64,000 bases of DNA from Acidobacteriota bacterium (lineage in GTDB: Bacteria > Acidobacteriota > Vicinamibacteria > Marinacidobacterales > SMYC01), in contig SMYC01000016.1 of NCBI GenBank assembly GCA_004356105.1, positions 891 to 64,890 of the forward strand, in the 5' to 3' direction. Positions within the stretch are counted from its first letter, which is position 1, and each line of letters starts with the position of its first letter. The position numbers were made by a program, and so were the translations under genes. Under the pieces are notes generated by a model. It was not told where the DNA came from. It ran no database searches and saw only the letters and a list, made by a program, of their open reading frames with translations. Of the stretch, positions 4,179 through 55,697 are shown in pieces.

Positions 4179-4487
4179 CTACGTAACGCGGCGCTTGAGC
4201 TCCTGCATGCATTGGTTCGCTGCTTTCAAGTGACCGTCGGTGCGGCCCACGATGGTGTTCACTTCGTTGGTCGTACGGCTCACGCTTTCGAGCGTCGCCG
4301 ATTGTTCCTCGGAAGCCGAAGCGATGCTCGTGACGAGCTGCGCACTTTCGGTGGCGCTCTCGCGGATGATCTGAAGCGCCTCGGCGGCGTCCTTTGCGAG
4401 CTCCGCGCTCTTCGAGACGGCTCCCGCGGTGTGCTTCATGGTCGCGACGTTCCGAAGGGTCTCCTCTTGTACTTTTTGTTCTCCCAA
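4179..4487 (-). pseudogene. Remnant of a methyl-accepting chemotaxis protein, comprising only the C-terminal ~100 aa of the signalling domain
   Basis: AEALQIIRESATESAQLVTSIASASEEQSATLESVSRTTNEVNTIVG matches the distal MCP signalling-domain heptads (EEQSA...). An in-frame stop lies at about 4512, so the ORF is at most 108 aa and lacks sensor, HAMP and core regions. Confidence 0.55.
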
Positions 4488-4610
4488 GATCGCACAAAGG
4501 CGGGACTGACGTCAAAGAGGCTCTCGGCTCTCGGCGAGAGCGGCGCTTTGCTCTACAGCTACAGCGAGATTTTGCTGCGGCTTGGCGTGCTGTGTTAGCC
4601 TCGCGACGAG

Positions 4611-5309
4611 ATGAACCGTTGGCTTCTCGTGCTCGTGGCTTTGTTTGGTGGTTGCCAGGCTCCGGAGCCCCCGCAACGTTCCCCACGGGAGCCCGCCCCA
4701 GATGTTACCGAGAGCCGGCCTCTGAAACAGGGATTCACGCACAGGCCGTCGCCAGATACGCCCGGTCTCCCACCGCAGATAGCGCCGCTTCTGGATGAGG
4801 CGGAGGTCACCACGGCCGCCGCCCGTGCCGAGGCACTCGGCCCCGAGGCTTTCCTCGCGGCGCAGCGCGAGCTAGACGTTCTCGTGAAGGCTTTCGAAAA
4901 ACGCCCCGATCCCGACGCCGCGGCTCGCATCCGGGAGCGCGCAACCGAGCTCGCGCGGGACGGCGAGCTTCCGTACCGGGACATCGAGGTGCTCTACGCC
5001 GAGTACCTGTTCCCGAATGTCACGGCTGAGGTAGATGCCAAGTACAAAGGCAAGCTCGTGCTTCTAGAGGCGACCGTCGCCCCGGCCAACATGAGAGACT
5101 TCGCGGACGGTTTCAAGCTCGTCGACCAAGACCCCTATGTCCACGACCCGCTCCTCCTTTCCATCGACTACGAGCTCTCATTTGTGGAATGCAGCCTCGC
5201 CGAGCCGTCCGTTCAACCGGTGCGAGATTGGGAGCCTATACACCTCATCGTCGAGGTGGTTGGCAAGCGATACAGCGATTTGATGCTGCGGCGCTGCGTG
5301 ATTCTCTAG
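4611..5309 (+). CDS. Hypothetical lipoprotein
   Basis: It has a lipobox (LVALFGGC) and is 232 aa. No catalytic motif was recognised. Confidence 0.55.
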   Translation: MNRWLLVLVALFGGCQAPEPPQRSPREPAPDVTESRPLKQGFTHRPSPDTPGLPPQIAPLLDEAEVTTAAARAEALGPEAFLAAQRELDVLVKAFEKRPDPDAAARIRERATELARDGELPYRDIEVLYAEYLFPNVTAEVDAKYKGKLVLLEATVAPANMRDFADGFKLVDQDPYVHDPLLLSIDYELSFVECSLAEPSVQPVRDWEPIHLIVEVVGKRYSDLMLRRCVIL

Positions 5310-11582: not shown

Positions 11583-13199
11583 TTACGGGTAGAACAGTGT
11601 GTGGGCCTTGGACTGCGGCTCGACACTCTCTTCGATCATCGTAGCGAAGTGCCAGCCATATTTTGCGAGAAATCCGAGAGGGGATAGGCGGCGCTCCTGG
11701 AACGTGAAGCCCGGGAACAAAGCCGTCCGTGAAGCGAAAAACTGCTGGCGCACGGTCTCATTCTTGCGCTTCACCGCGCGAAGCGCCTTCGACTCGAGCT
11801 CCTTGAGGTGGTGCAGCAGCTTGCCGCGCGTCGATTTGACCGTCGGCACGAGGCTCGCGTCGACGGGGGCGAGATCGCGCTCGAGCGCACTCGTGATGTC
11901 TTCGATACAATTTCGAGCCCGCGCGAGATCTTCGTCGAGCCCCGGTGGTGTGTGTTGACGCAAGATGTTGTTCAGAATCGATTCGTCGTTCGATTTGAGC
12001 TCAACGAACGAGACGTCGTAGCGCTCGAGGAAGCGGGCAGGCGCACGCTCGACCACCGTGAAGCTCGCACGCGACGCGATGAGCGGCATGACGACGCCGA
12101 AATGCTCGTAAAGGCCACGGAGCTGTGCGAAATAGGCGAGCTCGCTGGGCCCGGCGACGTAGGCGAGCGTCGGAAACAGCGTGTCCTGATAGATCGGCCG
12201 CAACAATACGTTGGGGCTGAATTGGCTTGGCTCGTCTTGGAGCCGCTTCAGAACGTCCTTTTTGGACACTGTGGTTCCGTCCGGGGTGAGACGCATGCCC
12301 CCTTCCGACACACCGATCGCGGTTCTGTCGGGGTCCGCGTAGAAAAGATTTAGCTGCCCATCTGTAGGGCTCGCCTGCACGTGATAGCCGCGCGCGACGA
12401 GCTCTTCGCTCGTCCTGTTGATGATCGCGCTGCTTTCGGACGCTTCCTCTAGCTCGCGCGCAAAGAGCGAGGCGCCGATGGCCTTGAGCTCGGGGAGTGT
12501 CGGGTCGATGACGGCGAGCCCCGTCCCGCGCGTCATGCGGAGCAGCCATGCGCCGAAAGCGTCGGCCATTGACCGCCCCGGGGCGTAGCTCGAGCGGAGA
12601 GACGTGAGCACGTCTTCTTTGAACTCGCTGTCGCCGAGCGCCTCGCCGGCCTTGTCGATTACGGCGCTGATCTCGGGCGCGAGCGCCAGCGGCCCAACCG
12701 GCTGGCGACCGGGCGCTCGAGGCGGCTCGTAGCGGAGGTCCAAGAGCTCGTTCCCGCGCGTGAGTATGGAGGTCTTTTGAACCTCGGCGAAATCGTGATC
12801 ATCCGCGTCCATCCAAAACAGCGGCACGACCCGTCTTCCGAGCCGTTGCTCTGCGAGGCGGGCGAGCTGCACGGCAGTAAGGGCTTTCGCGATCGTGTAG
12901 AGCGGCCCTCCGAAAATCCCTACTTGTTGCCCGCTCACGACCACGAGCGCGCCATCGCCGAGTGCATGAAGCGATGCGAGGGCTGCTTCGTCCGCCCCCA
13001 GCGAGACATTGAGCTTTCGTAGCGGGCCCGCGGTGGCGCCCTTACCTTCGAGTTTCGCTGCCACATCACCCCACGCGGCCGCATCGAACGGATCGGCGGC
13101 AAAGAAAGGTGAAAGAGCGTCGAACTTGTTCAGGTAGTCAAGGAAAAGGGGCTTGTAAGAAGGCAACTTGCGGTAATCGAGAGTGGAAATGTGCGGCAT
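11583..13199 (-). CDS. bshC: Bacillithiol biosynthesis cysteine-adding enzyme BshC-like
   Basis: The protein is about 540 aa and has the VVSGQQVGIFGGPLYTIAKALTAVQLA motif characteristic of BshC. The assignment is from memory of the family. Confidence 0.6.
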   Translation of the reverse strand: MPHISTLDYRKLPSYKPLFLDYLNKFDALSPFFAADPFDAAAWGDVAAKLEGKGATAGPLRKLNVSLGADEAALASLHALGDGALVVVSGQQVGIFGGPLYTIAKALTAVQLARLAEQRLGRRVVPLFWMDADDHDFAEVQKTSILTRGNELLDLRYEPPRAPGRQPVGPLALAPEISAVIDKAGEALGDSEFKEDVLTSLRSSYAPGRSMADAFGAWLLRMTRGTGLAVIDPTLPELKAIGASLFARELEEASESSAIINRTSEELVARGYHVQASPTDGQLNLFYADPDRTAIGVSEGGMRLTPDGTTVSKKDVLKRLQDEPSQFSPNVLLRPIYQDTLFPTLAYVAGPSELAYFAQLRGLYEHFGVVMPLIASRASFTVVERAPARFLERYDVSFVELKSNDESILNNILRQHTPPGLDEDLARARNCIEDITSALERDLAPVDASLVPTVKSTRGKLLHHLKELESKALRAVKRKNETVRQQFFASRTALFPGFTFQERRLSPLGFLAKYGWHFATMIEESVEPQSKAHTLFYP

Positions 13200-43733: not shown

Positions 43734-45854
43734 TCACCGGGTGAGCACTTCGATTTCCGAGAGCGCGGGCGGTCTCCCGTCGATCCCACGAAGTTTTAGT
43801 CTCAGCCGCGCTGTCTCGAAAGGTGCTAGAGAGATCGTCTGGGTTCCGTTCAAAGGCGTCTCTATCAAGCCTTCGATGAGCGCGGCCACCGCGGGCCAGT
43901 CCGGTGGCCCGGCGCCGCGGGTCCCCGGTCGTCCACTTGCGGCACTAGCGTCATCAAAGAACAATTCGAACGCGACGACGGGCGTGCGCGGCACCGGCCC
44001 ATAGTGAAAGCGGAGTCCTGCCACTTCGGTGAGCTCTTCGAGCTCCACCTCGAGCTCGAGGACCGTCTCTTTGGCTTCGAAGGGCTCGGCCGTGACGCCG
44101 TCGAAGAGCGCCTCGATACTTCCCGAGACGGGGACGCTCTCGAGAGCGGGTGCCTTTGCACCAAGCTTCGATCGAGTGGGATCGGGAAGGACCTCGAAAA
44201 CGATGTCGGTTCCGAAATCTCGGACCGGGAGGAGAGCTTCCCGTTGCGTTTCTATACCGCTCAGAAGCCTCAAGAGCGCCGGTTTGCGAAAGGCGCCTAG
44301 ATGCAGCACGACGTAGCGCACTTCGAGGTGCCTCAGCACGGCGATGGCGTCGGGGGAGGGAAATCGTCCGAGCGCGACTTTCAGCCATTGATGAGACATC
44401 GGGATGAAGCCGCTATCTCCGTTCAGCATGGGCCGAAAGTTGTGATGACGAGCCCAGAACATATAGCGCGTGTCCACTACTTTGAACGGAAGTTCGACGA
44501 TCGGCCCCGGCTCGGCATCGCGCAGCCATCTATAGACTTCCGGCGGCGCATCGCGATGAGGCTCGAGCCGGTAAGGGAGCGCGGTGGACTCGACCACGAA
44601 GAAGACAAGGATGGCCCCGAATATGGTTTTGCGACGGCCGACGCCTTCGAGAAGCCATGCGAGGCCGTAGGCGGAGAATACAGACAAGCTCAATAACGGC
44701 AGAAGGCTGAAGCGCGTAAGCGCGCGCAACCCTCGAAAAAAGACGACATGCTCATAGAGAAACGGATGGATGGGAGTCGCAGGCCCGAGCGACAAAATGA
44801 TACCCGTTAGAAAGATGGCCGCGTAGCAAACGCCGATGGTGCGCCCCCCGTTTTTCTTGACGAGCGTCGCGAGGCCCGTGCCGCCGAGGGTAATCAAGGT
44901 AAAGCCAGGAAAGAGAAAATCGGTGCGCCCCTCCGGGCTCGTCAAGGCTTCGGTGATCGATCGGTAGAGATGACTGGAAGAGGCTAGATAGGCTTGGGGC
45001 GTCGCGGAGAGCGAGCCGAGACCGGACAGGTCCCACTCGACGCCGAGCTCGCGATTCACCCAGAGATAGGGAAGCGCGAACGGTACGAGCACGGCTGCCA
45101 TGGCGATGAGCGCTGCGAGCAGGTAGCCCCATTCGCGGCGCGACAAACCAGCGTAGGGAAAGAGTGTTATGAGCGCCACGCCGAGGGCGACCGCGGCGAT
45201 GGCCCCGAGATAGGTACCTGACAGCGCTTGCAACACGAACGCCGCGGCTGCGAGGACGAGCCAGCGAGGCCGATGCGTCTCGGCATATCGGTGCAGCCCG
45301 GCGAGAAACAGAGGGATGAACGCATAGAGCTGCATTTGGAGGTGAGGGAGGCGATTGAAGCGGAAAGGAGCGAACGAAAAGAAGATGCCCGCGAGAATCG
45401 CGGCGAGATGGTCGCGCGTGAGCGCATAGGCCAGGAAATACATCCCGAGTCCCGAGGCGAACATCGAGAAGAGAAGGATAAAGTTGTTTGTCAATACGAG
45501 ATCGTCCGTCAGCGCGAGAAGCGGGATCGCGAGAATCCCCTGTAATGTCAGATGTTCGGAATAGGCCAGCGTGTGCGGCAGCGGGTAGAAGGTGTTGGCT
45601 TCGAACAGCGCGAGCGGATCCTCGAGAAGCTGATGCGCCACCCAAGAGATGGCCCATGCGTTCAGCCGGGCGTCGCCGTTATCGAGCCGGGAGAATGTGG
45701 CCGGGTGAAACGCGAGCGGGTAGCTAAGGAGCACGGTGGCCACGGCGAAGACGAGCGCGGCCCAAGCAACCTCTCGCCCGGTTGGTCCCGAGTCGGCTAG
45801 AGGCGCGAGCCGGGGCTCCGGCTCGATGACGCCTTTGCGAGATTTCAGGGGCAC
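43734..45854 (-). CDS. Large polytopic membrane protein; possible glycosyltransferase (GT39/YfhO-like) with a C-terminal soluble domain
   Basis: The 706-aa protein has more than 10 hydrophobic helices in the N-terminal 450 aa, then a soluble ~250-aa C-terminus. The family call is weak. Confidence 0.4.
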   Translation of the reverse strand: MPLKSRKGVIEPEPRLAPLADSGPTGREVAWAALVFAVATVLLSYPLAFHPATFSRLDNGDARLNAWAISWVAHQLLEDPLALFEANTFYPLPHTLAYSEHLTLQGILAIPLLALTDDLVLTNNFILLFSMFASGLGMYFLAYALTRDHLAAILAGIFFSFAPFRFNRLPHLQMQLYAFIPLFLAGLHRYAETHRPRWLVLAAAAFVLQALSGTYLGAIAAVALGVALITLFPYAGLSRREWGYLLAALIAMAAVLVPFALPYLWVNRELGVEWDLSGLGSLSATPQAYLASSSHLYRSITEALTSPEGRTDFLFPGFTLITLGGTGLATLVKKNGGRTIGVCYAAIFLTGIILSLGPATPIHPFLYEHVVFFRGLRALTRFSLLPLLSLSVFSAYGLAWLLEGVGRRKTIFGAILVFFVVESTALPYRLEPHRDAPPEVYRWLRDAEPGPIVELPFKVVDTRYMFWARHHNFRPMLNGDSGFIPMSHQWLKVALGRFPSPDAIAVLRHLEVRYVVLHLGAFRKPALLRLLSGIETQREALLPVRDFGTDIVFEVLPDPTRSKLGAKAPALESVPVSGSIEALFDGVTAEPFEAKETVLELEVELEELTEVAGLRFHYGPVPRTPVVAFELFFDDASAASGRPGTRGAGPPDWPAVAALIEGLIETPLNGTQTISLAPFETARLRLKLRGIDGRPPALSEIEVLTR

Positions 45855-45990: not shown

Positions 45991-47145
<1,155 letters not shown>

Positions 47146-47154
47146 GCAATCTGG

Positions 47155-47216
47155 GAAATATTAGTAATAGCGATCAATATTAAAAAGCGTAACGCAAAGG
47201 CGCAAAGAAGAGCAAA
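47155..47216 (+). repeat. Dispersed ~50-bp motif, copy 1 (AATATT..CGATCAATATTAAAAAGCGTAACGCAAAGGCGCAAAGAAG). It is the left inverted boundary of the ASST island.
   Basis: It matches the reverse complement of 49283-49352 over about 55 bp and resembles 55506-55556 / 55628-55697. Confidence 0.8.
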
Positions 47217-47264
47217 GTTGGATTCTAAAAGGGCGCTCGCTCGTTCGAGCCATTGTCCGCGAGG

Positions 47265-47579
47265 CTAAAATTCGCTCCGCCGAGGCTTTTTGTGGTGACG
47301 CCGTCGACGACGGGGACTGGGTTCGTTCATCGTTTCGAGGCGTTCGGGATCGAAGCCCACTGCCCAAAGCGTACTTGCGACGCCATAGACGATGTGCCCG
47401 TTAGGCGGGTAGCGTGGGCTGCTGCCGCCGGAGACGAGGACCTTCTTCTCTTCGCTTGATAGCTTGAGCTTCGTGTCGCGAGCGCGATACACCTCGCCCA
47501 TACCACTGCTCCGATGGGCGCGAGGATCTCGTAAGCTCCGAGTCGGGTTCCCGATGGGAGGGCCATTCACGTTACTCAC
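47265..47579 (-). pseudogene. Internally deleted relic of a Ser/Thr kinase / TolB-propeller gene
   Basis: One frame reads MALPSGTRLGAYEILAPIGA. It continues in another frame as GMGEVYRARDTKL (kinase Gly-loop / VAIK region), followed directly by a propeller-like tail. The catalytic domain is missing. Confidence 0.5.
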
Positions 47580-49110
47580 TGTTTGAAATCAGGTCTGCGA
47601 GTCCGGGGTAGTCGATTGGGTATTTGTTCGCACGATACAGGGTATGCGGAGCGTCGACTTCGTTCTTGTAGACGTATTCCCAAACGATATCGCCGGATGG
47701 CGTGACTTCACGCAATTTGGCGCCGGCGCCTTGATTGATCAGCGTATTTCCGTTCGGCAGGCGCTGAGCGCCCGAGATGTACCATGAGAAGAACCGTTCT
47801 GGCGGCTCGGGGTTGTATGCCCAGACCAGATCTTTGGGGCCATACGGCATGCCGTCTAGTGCCTCGTAGCTGCCGTCTGGATTCACGTCTGGTGTGAACT
47901 CGACGACGGTCGAATACGGCCGCGAATCATCATCGCCATTGTTGAATATCAATATGTTCCCAGCGCCCGGAAGGCCCGGGTGGATCCACTGCACGTCGTG
48001 CTGAAGGAAAAGAGTGCGATCGTTTTCGCTGCCGCGGTCGTAATTCGCTGGGTTACCCCATCGATACAACAAGTCACCGCCCTTGCCATAGCGACCACCA
48101 GAGTGCCCAGCGGATTGCTGTGGCGAGGTGCTGTGATCGATGATCAGGATTTCACTCATCGATCGGAAAGACATAGCGATTTGATCCAGCTCCGGGTTGT
48201 AATCAAGGGCGTTGGCATGGGTCCAGTCGGCCGACACGGTTCCATCATCGGAGTTCTGCCGAAACACATTGATATTGAGATGCTCGGGATGGTCAGCCAC
48301 AACACCGTAGTTGGATTTCCCTGGGTCGAAATCTTGAATCAAGTGATGCCGGATACTCCACTCCCAGACGACATCCAGAGTGTACGGATTGACCTCGATG
48401 ACGCCCTCGTACCAGAACTCACCGTTTTCCGCGACATGTTCAGGATCACGCCCCTGAGAGACAGCCTCGTCCGAGGTCACTTTTTCCCACACGAGCGTCA
48501 GAACATTGCCGTTATCCAACTTGACGACATCATGATGATTTATGTAATTGTCGGTGTTCAGGTTGATGCGCCATACCAGTTCACCCGACGCCGTATATTC
48601 TTCGATACAACCTGTCCTACCGCCCTGGGTGAAGCCTTTCGGACGGCCATTGCTAGACACCAAGCGGTGGCCATTCGGTAGCAATTGGGAGTAGGAGGGG
48701 TAGTAATCGCCTTCAAACGTAGCCACGATCTCTTTGGCGTCGTTGATCAGAAAAGACTCTTTGACGGCGCTTGGCTCAATGAGCACGTAGCCAGGTGAAA
48801 CACGATCCCAATCTGTGTCGACCAGATCCCGGTCCGCACCTATGGCGAGTCTCTTGACGTTATTTTCAGGCATTTCACTGATTTCGGTCCCAACCGGACC
48901 TGCCATGCCACCGTTTGAGCTCGGCATATTCTCAACACCACAATCCGAGGTAACGGTCATTGTCGATCGGTAAATCGGACGCAATGTCGGCGCATCACTG
49001 CCGGCTGCACCTTCCCGCTCGTCATTGCCCGAATTCACGCCACAGCCGCCGGCGATCGTCGCGATCCAGATAATCGTTACAAGTAGCAGTCGAAGTTTGT
49101 TCGCACTCAT
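47572..49110 (-). CDS. Arylsulfotransferase (ASST)-family beta-propeller lipoprotein
   Basis: Lipobox IAGGC. The repeated LPNGHRLV / NGNVLTL / NGNTLI blade motifs and HHDV / HANA histidines are typical of ASST-like proteins. Its GC content is visibly lower than the flanks. Confidence 0.6.
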   Translation of the reverse strand: MSANKLRLLLVTIIWIATIAGGCGVNSGNDEREGAAGSDAPTLRPIYRSTMTVTSDCGVENMPSSNGGMAGPVGTEISEMPENNVKRLAIGADRDLVDTDWDRVSPGYVLIEPSAVKESFLINDAKEIVATFEGDYYPSYSQLLPNGHRLVSSNGRPKGFTQGGRTGCIEEYTASGELVWRINLNTDNYINHHDVVKLDNGNVLTLVWEKVTSDEAVSQGRDPEHVAENGEFWYEGVIEVNPYTLDVVWEWSIRHHLIQDFDPGKSNYGVVADHPEHLNINVFRQNSDDGTVSADWTHANALDYNPELDQIAMSFRSMSEILIIDHSTSPQQSAGHSGGRYGKGGDLLYRWGNPANYDRGSENDRTLFLQHDVQWIHPGLPGAGNILIFNNGDDDSRPYSTVVEFTPDVNPDGSYEALDGMPYGPKDLVWAYNPEPPERFFSWYISGAQRLPNGNTLINQGAGAKLREVTPSGDIVWEYVYKNEVDAPHTLYRANKYPIDYPGLADLISNSE

Positions 49111-49282
49111 ATCTCACTTTGCTCAGCGAAATTGTCCAAGTAGTCGGCCTCACTTGGGACATTTTCGAATCGAACAATATAGGATCTCCACCACCCCAAC
49201 AACCCTCACGCCGACGAAGCACGAGAAGGCCATTCGCCCCAAGCCGCCCGAGACCCCCTATTATTCCGGAAGAGACTTCTTT

Positions 49283-49352
49283 TCTTTCTTTTTTTCTTTG
49301 CGCCTTTGCGTTACGCCTTTTTTAACATTGATCGTTTTTATCAATATTGTCC
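49283..49352 (-). repeat. Dispersed ~50-bp motif, copy 2 (inverted relative to copy 1). It is the right boundary of the ASST island.
   Basis: The + strand reads CTTTGCGCCTTTGCGTTACGCCTTTTTTAACATTGATCGTTTTTATCAATATT. Confidence 0.8.
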
Positions 49353-49358
49353 GGGGAT

Positions 49359-51680
49359 CTACGTGCGCACGTTGAAGAGCCCATATAGCGCCGCGATGCT
49401 GAAGAGCACGTTGGGGGCCCAGGCAGCCAAGACGGGTGGAAGGAACGCCATCTCGCCCATGAAAGCGAACACGCGGGTCGTCACGTAATAGGCCAAGCCG
49501 ATCGCGATGGCAATTCCGATGCCGTAGAGTGCGCCTTTTTTTCCCGGGCTAAACGAGAAGGGTATCGCGATGAGCGCCATTACCATCGCGGCTAGCGGGA
49601 AGGAGAACTTTGCATGTTGGGCCACGCGAAGGGGGACGACGTCATAGCCTGCCTGCTGCAAATCGTCGACGTAGCGGGTCAGCTCCATGTAGGTCATCTG
49701 ATCGGAGCGCTTGACCTCCTTGACGAAGTAAGACGGTGGCTCCATGTCGTGGATGAGGAGGGTCTCGAAGCTCTCATGCTTCCCGCCTTCGACGAAATTG
49801 CGCCTCCATCCCCGGGAGAAAATCCATGCGCCCTGCTCCGACGCCCATTGAGCTTCTTGCGTATAGAGACGTTCGGTGATGGTGAATGGGTCGGTCTGAA
49901 ACTTGTAGACCGCGAGGCCGCTAAACTTCTGCAGATTCGAATCGTAATAGGCGTAGTTGTAGAGCTCTTGCCCCTCTCCCATCATCCATTGACGGTTCAA
50001 GACATTGTGGGTCTGGACCGGGCGGTTCTTGATCTCGTCGCGAAGCTCCGCCGCGCGGCGATTGGCGTAGGGGAGCCAATATTCTTGGAGCGCGAAACAG
50101 CCCGCGCTCACCATGATTCCTATCAAGATAACGGGCACGGATATCCGGTAGAGGCTTATTCCCCCGGCTTTCGCCGCCGTGATCTCGCTCGTCTTTGTCA
50201 AGATGGCGAAACAGACAAGGGTCGCCATGAGGGTTGCGAGAGGCAACATGTGAAAGAGAATCTGCGGCTGGGCAAAAGCGAGATATTGAAGAACGAGCGT
50301 TCCCTTTATGTTGTGCTCGAATGCATCGGCGATCACATCGATGAGCAGACCGAGGATGTAGACGCTCACGAGTGCTACTAGTATCAGTAGAAAGAAACGC
50401 GCGAACTCGCGACCGATATAGCGATCGAGCGTGTTCGGGAAGCGCAAGCTTATCCGTGGGACGCGGACCACGACGATGGTGCGGTCGGGTGTGCTCGCTC
50501 GTCTCTTGCGGAGAGCGTGGAGCTTTACTGCCAGGCTTGGCCAAAGCCTGTCGATCCCGAAAAAACCGGCTCCTTGAGATTCCCGCGCCGCACGTATCAG
50601 GAGCGCTATTGCCATACCGCCGAGAAGGATGTTGGGCGTCCACATCCCGAGAAAAGGTGACAAGCGGCCCGTTACCGCCATGTTCTCGCCAACATCGATG
50701 ATGATGTAGTAAGTAAAAATGACGGCCAGGCTCACGATGAAGCCCCATGAACGACCGTCTCGTCGATTGCTGATGCCGAGCGCGAGGCCGAGCACCCCGA
50801 AAACGAAACAGGCAAAGGGAATCGAGAATTTCTTGTGGATCTCGGTCAGATAGATAGGGAGCTTCGTTTCGGCATAAGACTGACGCAGCTGGCTCAGGCT
50901 GAGCTCGCGTGCTCCCCGCGGCACGTTGATGTCTTCCGGTGGGAAGAAGGTGTGCGTCGGTAGCGGAAGAAAGATCTCCTTCGAGACCTGTCTCTGATAT
51001 TCCGCTGGCTTGCGATGCGAGACCTGATGCAGCTCAGCGTCTTTCAGGTAAAACGTCGCCGTCCGCGCCTCGGCGTCGATGAGGAGCTGTCCCTGGCTGG
51101 CGAAAGTCACGCGCGGAGATTGGGGCTCCGACAAGTCGGCAAGGATCACGTTCTCCCAGTAGCCCACGCCCGTCGGCGTGTCGAGCACCAGGAACATGAG
51201 ATTCGGGAAAAGCCGGTCGTAGAACACCCGCGGCCGGACCTCAGTGCCCGCTTGGGACGTCAGGATCTTGAAGAAGAGCTGGCGGACGTGCTGATTCGAG
51301 TCCGGCAGCACTTTAATAATGAGGTAGGATGACGCTCCCCAGGCGATCGTGGCCGCCACCAATATTGGGATGAGCAGCCGGTACAGACTCACGCCGCTCG
51401 CCCGCATCGCGATGATCTCGCTATCCGCGGCGAGTCGTCCTAGTGCTATGAGTACCCCGAGCAAGAAGCCCATCGGGATGGTCAAACAGAGGACGCTCGG
51501 GAGCAGGTGTAACAGGATGCTGAGCGTGTCCGCCAATGACGCCGATTGGCTCACGATCCTCTGGGCGAAGCGCAGGATCTCGTTCAGCAGGATGACGAAG
51601 GTAAAGACGCCTATCCCCAAAATAACGCTCGGGAACACTTCACGCAGGACGTAGCGGTCGAGGATCCGCAGCATGTTCAA
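49359..51680 (-). CDS. lptFG: Fused LptF-LptG lipopolysaccharide export permease (two YjgP/YjgQ modules in one 773-aa polypeptide)
   Basis: The N-terminal module starts MNMLRILDRYVLREV. The second module starts LRFPNTLDRYIGREFARFFLLILVAL. Each has the six-TM-plus-periplasmic-domain layout, and the reading frame is continuous. Confidence 0.75.
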   Translation of the reverse strand: MNMLRILDRYVLREVFPSVILGIGVFTFVILLNEILRFAQRIVSQSASLADTLSILLHLLPSVLCLTIPMGFLLGVLIALGRLAADSEIIAMRASGVSLYRLLIPILVAATIAWGASSYLIIKVLPDSNQHVRQLFFKILTSQAGTEVRPRVFYDRLFPNLMFLVLDTPTGVGYWENVILADLSEPQSPRVTFASQGQLLIDAEARTATFYLKDAELHQVSHRKPAEYQRQVSKEIFLPLPTHTFFPPEDINVPRGARELSLSQLRQSYAETKLPIYLTEIHKKFSIPFACFVFGVLGLALGISNRRDGRSWGFIVSLAVIFTYYIIIDVGENMAVTGRLSPFLGMWTPNILLGGMAIALLIRAARESQGAGFFGIDRLWPSLAVKLHALRKRRASTPDRTIVVVRVPRISLRFPNTLDRYIGREFARFFLLILVALVSVYILGLLIDVIADAFEHNIKGTLVLQYLAFAQPQILFHMLPLATLMATLVCFAILTKTSEITAAKAGGISLYRISVPVILIGIMVSAGCFALQEYWLPYANRRAAELRDEIKNRPVQTHNVLNRQWMMGEGQELYNYAYYDSNLQKFSGLAVYKFQTDPFTITERLYTQEAQWASEQGAWIFSRGWRRNFVEGGKHESFETLLIHDMEPPSYFVKEVKRSDQMTYMELTRYVDDLQQAGYDVVPLRVAQHAKFSFPLAAMVMALIAIPFSFSPGKKGALYGIGIAIAIGLAYYVTTRVFAFMGEMAFLPPVLAAWAPNVLFSIAALYGLFNVRT

Positions 51681-55505: not shown

Positions 55506-55697
55506 GAAAAGATCAATAATAAAAAGGCGTAACGCAAAGGCGCCAAGCCGCAAAGGTCCGTATACCAAAGGTCCGTATCCCACCCTAAAGATTACGTACC
55601 GATCCAAAGAGGGCCTTCGAATCTTCTTCCTTTTCTTTCTTTGCGCCTCTGCGGCTTTGCGCCTTTGCGTTACGCTTTCCTTAATATTGATCTTTTC
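55506..55697. mobile_element. MITE-like 190-bp element. Two ~50-bp inverted copies of the dispersed motif (55506-55556 and 55628-55697) flank a 70-bp core that contains a CAAAGGTCCGTAT direct repeat.
   Basis: The outer ends AAAAGATCAATAATAAAAAGGCGTAACGC ... GCGTTACGCTTTCCTTAATATTGATCTTTT are near-perfect inverted repeats. No coding capacity. Confidence 0.6.

Follow-up and report, generated by a model that had tools for sequence, protein, structure and literature searches.

Bacterial MITEs (miniature inverted-repeat transposable elements), of which the Correia repeat enclosed elements (CREE) of Neisseria are an example, are short, non-coding, high-copy intergenic sequences with inverted ends that form hairpins. 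Correia elements often lie at gene ends, where they can serve as terminators, fall into subfamilies with different interiors, and duplicate TA. A second group of systems comprises the repetitive extragenic palindromes (REPs), the bacterial interspersed mosaic elements (BIMEs), the hairpin-forming REP doublets (REPINs) and the REP-associated tyrosine transposases (RAYTs); these systems have hundreds of intergenic copies, and the REP unit is an imperfect palindrome of 20-40 nt with a GTAG or CGTC head. Repeats and hairpins of this kind can also receive other DNA, as with the insertion sequences (ISs) IS1397 and ISKpn1 in REP-BIME and class C group II introns beside terminator hairpins. Ordinary genes, for their part, are found between short inverted sites in the pdif modules of Acinetobacter plasmids (inverted XerC/D sites) and as small genomic islets in core-gene spacers. 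Here we describe an island of about 2.2 kb (positions 47155-49352) in a 64,000-nucleotide stretch of the Acidobacteriota contig SMYC01000016.1 (the whole stretch is referred to below as the window). The island carries an arylsulfotransferase (ASST)-family lipoprotein gene and the relic of a kinase gene, lies between the core genes metK and lptF-lptG (a fused gene, hereafter lptFG), and is bounded by two inverted copies, c1 and c2, of a single motif. Features of the known systems used for comparison were taken from established knowledge.

The motif is one arm of a high-copy, non-coding, palindromic intergenic repeat that is MITE- and REPIN-like. In our judgement the odds lie slightly on the side of an accessory-gene insertion at a repeat hot spot, in which foreign DNA lodged between the arms of a resident copy of this repeat and subsequently decayed. 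The island is like the pdif modules in layout only: both place one or two ordinary genes between short inverted sites present at many loci, but the arms show no sign of Xer-type half-sites, no copies of the module were found at other loci, and the arms are absent from other ASST homologues. Small genomic islets are closer, with presence or absence among close relatives, deviant GC content and codon use, and decay, and by the first two of these features the island is itself a genomic islet. It differs in having no tRNA, integrase or direct repeats, and thus none of the integration machinery of its own that marks a genomic island, and in its site, a convergent terminator spacer that holds a repeat.

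Inverted arms at the island edges

Arm c1 (47172-47217, plus strand) and arm c2 (49276-49334, minus strand) are inverted copies of one motif with the 2.2-kb segment between them. The 23-mer GCGTAACGCAAAGGCGCAAAGAA is exact at 47187-47209 (plus strand) and 49294-49316 (minus strand), a match found in 0 of 100 shuffles. The repeat search of the window returned the pair as 28 nt at 96%, while on direct reading the arms match from GATCAAT(A/G)TTAAAAA to GCGTAACGCAAAGGCGCAAAGAA at approximately 37 of 40 positions. Outward of this core there is a weaker match of about 18 nt, GGA(A/C)AATATT..TAA.A.C, at 47153-47171 and 49334-49352, which brings the total to ~58 nt; the inverted repeats of ~55 bp that the initial annotation placed at both edges are thus borne out. 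On direct reading, each outer stretch repeats part of the arm terminus in degenerate form (GGGAAATATTAGTAATAGC on the plus strand beside c1; GGACAATATTGATAAAAAC on the minus strand beside c2), and this half-copy is common to c1 and c2 without being general in the repeat family.

Both arms share the same plan. Arm c1 consists of GATCAATATTAAAAA, GCGTAACGC, CAAAG octamer units and a short purine tract, with its terminus toward metK; c2 has the same core, one octamer unit and a long purine tract, with its terminus toward lptFG. Against a profile of the arms built for nhmmer, c1 scored 42 bits (E 6e-11) and c2 41 bits (E 1.6e-10). The arm ends lie 25-26 nt from the stop codon on either side (metK stop at 47143-45, lptFG stop at 49359-61). 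No direct duplication can be read beside c1 or c2, where only the palindromic AATATT recurs, and the flanking duplications for which the initial annotation had suggested looking are therefore absent.

Taken alone, c1 and c2 are unstructured (folding z of 0.5 and -0.6) and do not qualify as bidirectional intrinsic terminators; a promoter or terminator role for the lone arms was rejected, as scans gave no more sites than in shuffles and there was no folding. The number of (N)CGCAAAG octamers differs between orthologous arms, with one unit in c1 of the window (47200-47217) versus two in the corresponding arm of locus L083 (~11900-11932; other sampled loci are likewise cited by number), and one in c2 of the window (49294-49303) versus three in L101 (4960-4990). 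Such differences occur between near-identical strains, and the octamers are in this respect microsatellite-like.

A family of palindromic intergenic repeats

The window holds two further arms, c3 (55510-55554, plus strand) and c4 (55648-55693, minus strand), for a total of four. The two make up an intact, short member of the repeat family (55510-55695, 186 bp) between smc and a CYTH-domain gene. It forms one hairpin when folded (-90 kcal/mol, z -10), and its interior is common to two copies in OZ240210.1 (L046 and L063). This copy is missing from the same spacer in OZ253507.1 (L097). When the filled site is compared with the empty one, AAAA stands at one flank and TTTT at the opposite flank, which lengthens the palindrome and gives no direct repeat, and no target duplication is readable.

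Copies of the family were sampled by an exact scan for AAAG(N)CGTAACGCAAAGGCGC with one genome per species, yielding at least 82 loci, compared with about two chance matches expected from the size of the collection. The matches listed share CAAAG octamer repeats, which were not part of the search pattern. At least 28 of the loci fall in the 9.2-Mb chromosome OZ240210.1 (Candidatus Marinacidobacterales), with further copies in OZ253507.1 and Acidobacteria bin61. The motif is thus a ubiquitous intergenic repeat, which is largely the outcome that the initial annotation had itself set against its proposal of a mobile cassette.

An acidobacterial arm starts with the terminus GATCAATATTAAGAAAA and continues through GCGTAACGCAAAGG and between one and five (N)CGCAAAG octamers to a tract rich in purines, and an intact copy is laid out as an arm, a short centre and the mirror-image arm, with several types of interior. 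Among the matches listed, to which all counts in this paragraph refer, arms are 45-60 nt long, and intact pairs measure 83-373 bp end to end with 45-333 nt between core starts. Pairing is convergent in 22 cases and divergent in four, and the acidobacterial loci comprise about 20 with single arms versus 24 with paired arms, although many of the singles are pairs interrupted by ISs. Convergent spacers are strongly over-represented: arms lie in convergent, tandem and divergent spacers in 25, 13 and 6 cases, against a background of 61, 124 and 66 (from rough open reading frame (ORF) calls).

Pairs at these spacings fold as single hairpins with z between -4.5 and -11, and the minimal copies are perfect hairpins flanked by a run of A and a run of T (L017, 83 nt, z -11; the Anaerolineae copy L003, z -5). 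With a stable hairpin, AAAA and TTTT flanks and a position between gene ends, the intact short copies (L017, L003 and c3-c4) fit a predicted bidirectional intrinsic terminator.

The 20-nt core AAAGCGTAACGCAAAGGCGC with CAAAG-type octamers was also seen, unexpectedly and at many of the loci, beyond the Acidobacteria, in Chloroflexi (Anaerolineae, Caldilineaceae), in Desulfuromonadales/Geobacteraceae and in other deltaproteobacterial metagenome-assembled genomes. The copies in other phyla (e.g. L003, L050, L032, L021) often stand beside heptamer tandem repeats and GTAG-type palindromes, and the core there also occurs in tandem arrays with periods of 13 nt (x6), 158 nt (x4) and 66 nt (L027 ~990-1065; L032 4200-4700; L070 6490-6700).

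The family appears to be undescribed. Rfam gave nothing at gathering thresholds across the window and only chance-level matches around the arms, no match to the motif was found in viral contigs or plasmid collections, the motif string and the name of the order appear in no paper, and papers on MITEs do not contain this repeat. Its characters are those of a MITE in that it is short (<~500 bp), non-coding and multi-copy with terminal inverted repeats, and it resembles the Correia elements in all the respects listed above save the duplication of TA. Unlike them, it shows no readable target duplication, the sampled copies yielded no parent IS that shares its ends, and its arms carry a variable octamer microsatellite and a 20-nt core shared across phyla. 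The likeness to REP, BIME and REPIN systems extends to hairpin-forming inverted doublets in intergenic positions, singlets beside doublets, a preference for gene 3' ends and service as a target of ISs. However, the arms are 45-60 nt long and not small palindromes themselves, they start with GATCAAT and have no GTAG or CGTC head, and no single-copy Y1 transposase gene flanked by arms was seen in the sampled copies.

Insertions into repeat copies of related genomes

The arm pairs of OZ240210.1 that are spaced at ~2 kb like c1 and c2 (L065, L081, L015 and L041) hold an ISL3-family IS in all cases examined. This element encodes a transposase of 406 aa (Pfam DDE_Tnp_ISL3, 2e-70), has inverted ends of its own and lands in A/T-rich octamers; at L065 its 8-bp duplication, GAAAAAGA, can be read directly within the purine tract of the repeat. 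The same IS, ~1.7 kb in length (L065 3266-4983), is highly multiplied at OZ240210.1 loci, with at least 20 ends in the sampled loci. Further copies of the repeat are broken up by an IS4-like IS and by ISL3 elements of a second type. At L081 (4183-4768) an IS200-like element sits within the arm terminus, between CTTAAT and ATTGATC; it has its own hairpin ends and a Y1 transposase gene (4237-4689, Pfam 1.3e-38), the only Y1 gene near an arm in the sampled copies. Finally, a group II intron with no ORF lies between the arms of L056 (5875-6703; Rfam RF02003, group-II-D1D4-4, 68 bits, E 1.5e-14). The ends of all these insertions are unlike the arms. Since the same arms flank, in related genomes, ISs with their own ends and duplications as well as an intron, the repeat behaves as a landing pad and not as a vehicle.

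These insertions recall those of IS1397 and ISKpn1 into REP-BIME and of class C introns beside terminators, with ISs and an intron inside or between the arms, and the ASST island occupies the same position as the lodged ISs. The island differs in being without a mobility gene, and the ISL3 element seems to prefer A/T-rich octamers in general and not to recognise the repeat as such.

Several candidates for a parent of the repeat were tried and rejected. The ends of the ISL3 element (GCCTCTCCTGCC… and GGTTCTCCTGTC…) are unlike the arms, and its own 8-bp duplication lies inside the repeat. A RAYT/REPIN origin finds no support, in the sampled copies, from the Y1 gene of L081, which belongs to an IS200-like insertion into an arm and is not an arm-flanked gene. 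A tyrosine-recombinase origin (RIT-like or integron-like) was likewise set aside, as the recombinases of L022 occur once, in a nest of insertions; GCGTAAC…GTTACGC bears some resemblance to attC R boxes, with one mismatch on each side. No autonomous element with arm-type ends was found, but the sample covers only about 45 acidobacterial copies (among the matches listed), so a partner may yet exist.

This evidence bears directly on the proposal in the initial annotation of a non-autonomous cassette bounded by inverted repeats, according to which c1 and c2 would be terminal inverted repeats recognised in trans and an arm-ASST-kinase-arm unit would have transposed into the spacer between lptFG and metK. 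The arms do point outward from the precise edges of the island, at 25-26 nt from either stop codon, they resemble the ends of the short MITE-like copies, and the island is missing in close relatives. The same arms nevertheless flank ISs with ends of their own in related genomes, every long pair sampled held an IS with ends different from the arms, and the ~45 copies yielded no autonomous element to supply a transposase for such ends. Neither a target duplication nor a second locus for the unit was found, exact ASST copies stand in one context only, and ASST homologues elsewhere are without arms. Together with the alleles described in the next section, these observations make a transposed cassette improbable.

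Alleles of the spacer between lptFG and metK

The exact ASST protein is present on four metagenome contigs, and the context is identical in all of them. An invertible (phase-variable) segment was rejected, as all assemblies with the island have it in one orientation and no recombinase lies nearby. The comparison with a syntenic relative that the initial annotation had called for was made possible by OZ253507.1, in which LptFG is 93% identical and the gap between lptFG and metK is only 37 nt. The same 37-nt spacer occurs in L095, L096 and L116, the island is missing in L095-L097 and L116, and it is on these grounds accessory. The island-free L097 keeps GATCAAATATTAGTAGCG, orthologous to the half-copy outside c1, a stretch that hints at a deletion as the possible source of the 37-nt allele; the island-free allele is therefore not a clean empty site. 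In more distant relatives the spacer is occupied by a variant palindromic element that is complete (L098), by a plain terminator hairpin (L117) or by neither of these (L099).

Three further alleles carry all or part of the ASST gene. L090 and L091 have the order lptFG-ASST-metK, with an ASST that is 90% identical in amino acids and 92% in nucleotides; they are without the core motif and the kinase relic, but toward lptFG a portion of the purine tract survives. L101 (SMVA01367931.1) keeps ASST together with a c2 of three octamer units, while c1 and the relic are both missing. In L110, c1 is accompanied by another remnant of that kinase gene (a weak Pkinase match, E 0.005) and by only the last third of ASST, and c2 is absent. 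The cargo thus occurs with c2 only, with c1 only and with no core at all, and the independence of the arms in these sister alleles is a further reason for setting the cassette aside.

A sliding comparison of L101 with the window gave 99-100% identity except over ~1.5 kb (window ~48,400 to ~46,900). This patch, which runs from the 3' half of ASST to the 3' end of metK, is 99.5-100% identical to L090. L101 is clearly a homologous-recombination mosaic in which c1 and the kinase relic were removed.

Homologous exchange at this locus, demonstrated by the mosaic, also speaks for the main alternative to our reading. In a repeat-mediated homologous capture, which is the same as the "recombination product between dispersed repeats" of the initial annotation, an ASST-kinase segment lying between two repeat copies in a donor genome would have entered by a double crossover of those copies with the arms of the resident element. 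The arms provide 45-60 nt of near-identical sequence at many loci, and a capture of this kind would explain their young, near-consensus look. However, a donor arrangement with ASST lying between repeats was found at no other locus, RecA-dependent exchange would have only short arms to work on, and with the present data a capture leads to the same expectation as insertion into a resident element. We consider it unlikely, although less so than the cassette.

Identities of metK and neighbouring genes place L090 nearest to the island-free L097 (95%), with the window at 87-91% from both. It follows that the island was lost in L097 or was passed between lineages by flanking homology. Arm c1 is old at the locus, since in L110 and in the window the same kinase 3' tail lies next to c1, and both arms can be called old, given that c1 is common to the divergent L110 and part of the c2 purine tract is common to L090.

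The age of the arms tells against a scenario in which the island was already in the spacer and was later flanked by two separate single or truncated repeat copies, which arrived on its two sides in opposite orientations. Such a double landing would be favoured by the family's bias towards gene 3' ends and convergent spacers, and single arms are common by the counts given above; the island of L090, with no recognisable core, would also fit. Many of the apparently single arms are nonetheless pairs interrupted by ISs, and c1 and c2 share both the extra outer half-copy and an equal distance from the stop codons. We regard two independent arms as the most doubtful of these explanations for the locus.

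Origin of the island

The reading that we favour, with a confidence a little above even, makes c1 and c2 the two halves of a split target and not the ends of a vehicle. A palindromic element of the family would have been resident in the convergent lptFG-metK spacer in an ancestor of the lineage. Foreign DNA of lower GC content, made up of ASST along with the upstream region belonging to it and of a Ser/Thr kinase gene plus terminator, would then have lodged between the arms of the element, probably at the A/T-rich tracts where ISs and the intron land in related genomes. Decay and reshuffling by deletion and homologous recombination among co-existing lineages may later have produced the kinase relic, the alleles with one arm or none, and the island-free allele.

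We take c1 and c2 for arms of a resident repeat because they are not specific to the island, are not always found together, are absent from ASST elsewhere and show no duplication. At either edge the island borders directly on the purine tract of an arm, and the interior sequence is unique or orthologous only. A single split element, as opposed to two unrelated arms, is favoured by the outer half-copy present in both arms and by their equal distance from the stop codons, and it is from these features that we infer one resident element; the mode by which the DNA entered is put forward in the same conditional sense. What the data show directly is that the arms belong to the family, that the repeat serves as a landing pad, that the island is polymorphic in presence and absence, and that one allele is a recombination mosaic.

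A number of observations weigh against this reading. An element of the c1/c2 subfamily in unsplit form was found in this spacer in none of the alleles, and the step of a resident element is for that reason conjectural. Nothing in the island explains how a two-gene piece entered without mobility genes. The arms c1 and c2 are nearly identical to one another and to the consensus, yet the age of the island corresponds to at least ~8-9% nucleotide divergence, so that selection, gene conversion or later renewal of the arms would be required. Furthermore, the arm-like fragments in the island-free allele suggest that it may be a deletion derivative and not the ancestral empty site, in which case the order of events may not be fixed. 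Lastly, the sample of family copies is biased, having been drawn with an exact 20-mer scan and consisting of the 82 loci listed.

Composition, cargo and flanking genes

The segment 47155-49352 has 53.8% GC, the lowest among all 2.2-kb stretches of the window (mean 59.6%, sd 1.8%; 0.08% of stretches equally low). The AT-richness remarked on in the initial annotation consequently persists on calculation, although the surroundings are at ~59.5% GC and not at the ~63% given there. GC at third codon positions (GC3) is 0.62 in the ASST gene versus 0.71-0.75 in the neighbouring genes.

The content of the segment was also correctly described as an ASST-family lipoprotein gene with the relic of a kinase gene. 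The intact ASST gene (47572-49110, minus strand; low GC3) encodes 512 aa with a lipobox at the N-terminus and matches Pfam PF05935 (Arylsulfotrans; 7e-22, 78 bits, cut-off 24) and PF14269 (2e-10, 41 bits, cut-off 27). Judged by its beta-propeller domain match, it is an ordinary member of the ASST family with more than 7,600 homologues, and its activity is a predicted one. The upstream region (49111-49220, minus strand) travels with the gene and is conserved in homologues at other loci. The Ser/Thr protein kinase gene relic (47265-47579, minus strand), delineated from ORFs, joins an N-terminal Gly-loop region to a C-terminal propeller-like piece; it is frameshifted and has lost a large internal part. 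Over the first ~35 aa it shows 80-94% identity with the N-termini of annotated Ser/Thr kinases. Between the relic and c1 lies the 3' untranslated tail of the former kinase gene (47218-47264, minus strand; …GAGCGAGCGCCCTTTTAGAAT), common to L110, which forms the inner island edge and has no match to other repeat copies. No transposase is present among the ORFs of the segment, as the initial annotation had said, no recombinase was found in the neighbourhood, and there is no tRNA in the window.

ASST homologues at 80-83% identity were found in unrelated contexts without the repeat. Homology of those loci comprises the coding sequence and ~110 nt upstream only, and in blastn against L102 it runs from window position 49220 to 47587. 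One homologue with 80% identity (L086; 7048-7971 and 12777-16222) lies in an IS-rich region of another acidobacterial genome, beside sulfatase genes, with an ISAzo13-type transposase directly upstream of ASST and two DDE_Tnp_1_4 genes downstream. From these IS-rich surroundings, the ASST gene appears to move repeatedly.

The left flanking core gene, metK (S-adenosylmethionine synthetase; 45991-47145, plus strand), was recognised as an ORF convergent with lptFG, and S-AdoMet_synt domains of Pfam were found on the identical metK of L083. On the right, the fused lptF-lptG permease gene (49359-51680, minus strand) matches Pfam LptF_LptG in two stretches (1e-153); the fusion, a single gene of 773 aa with two LptF_LptG domains, is conserved throughout this acidobacterial clade. 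Adjoining metK, positions 43734-45854 encode a conserved predicted membrane protein of 706 aa, which has no Pfam match and is syntenic in all relatives examined.

Significance

A more far-reaching possibility, to which we give little weight, is that the cross-phylum, undescribed family consists of self-propagating palindromic elements that act as portable bidirectional terminators and whose arms could be used by a recombinase or transposase to pick up ordinary genes and move them. If so, the ASST island would be one such module after capture, with a layout like that of the pdif modules.

For annotation, inverted repeats around genes in these genomes should not be taken as transposon ends, as they belong to the arms of a repeat that is spread through the genome and draws in insertions. 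The family combines a strain-variable octamer microsatellite, a core found across phyla, and frequent interruption by inserted DNA, with at least four types of IS and an intron among it; the cross-phylum core and the strain-variable number of octamers are the parts of note and are worth following. The locus itself offers a compact series of alleles, with the full island, one arm lost, the gene truncated, the island gone and a recombinant mosaic, in which an accessory gene would have been gained at a convergent terminator spacer and then eroded and reshuffled among co-existing uncultured Acidobacteria.

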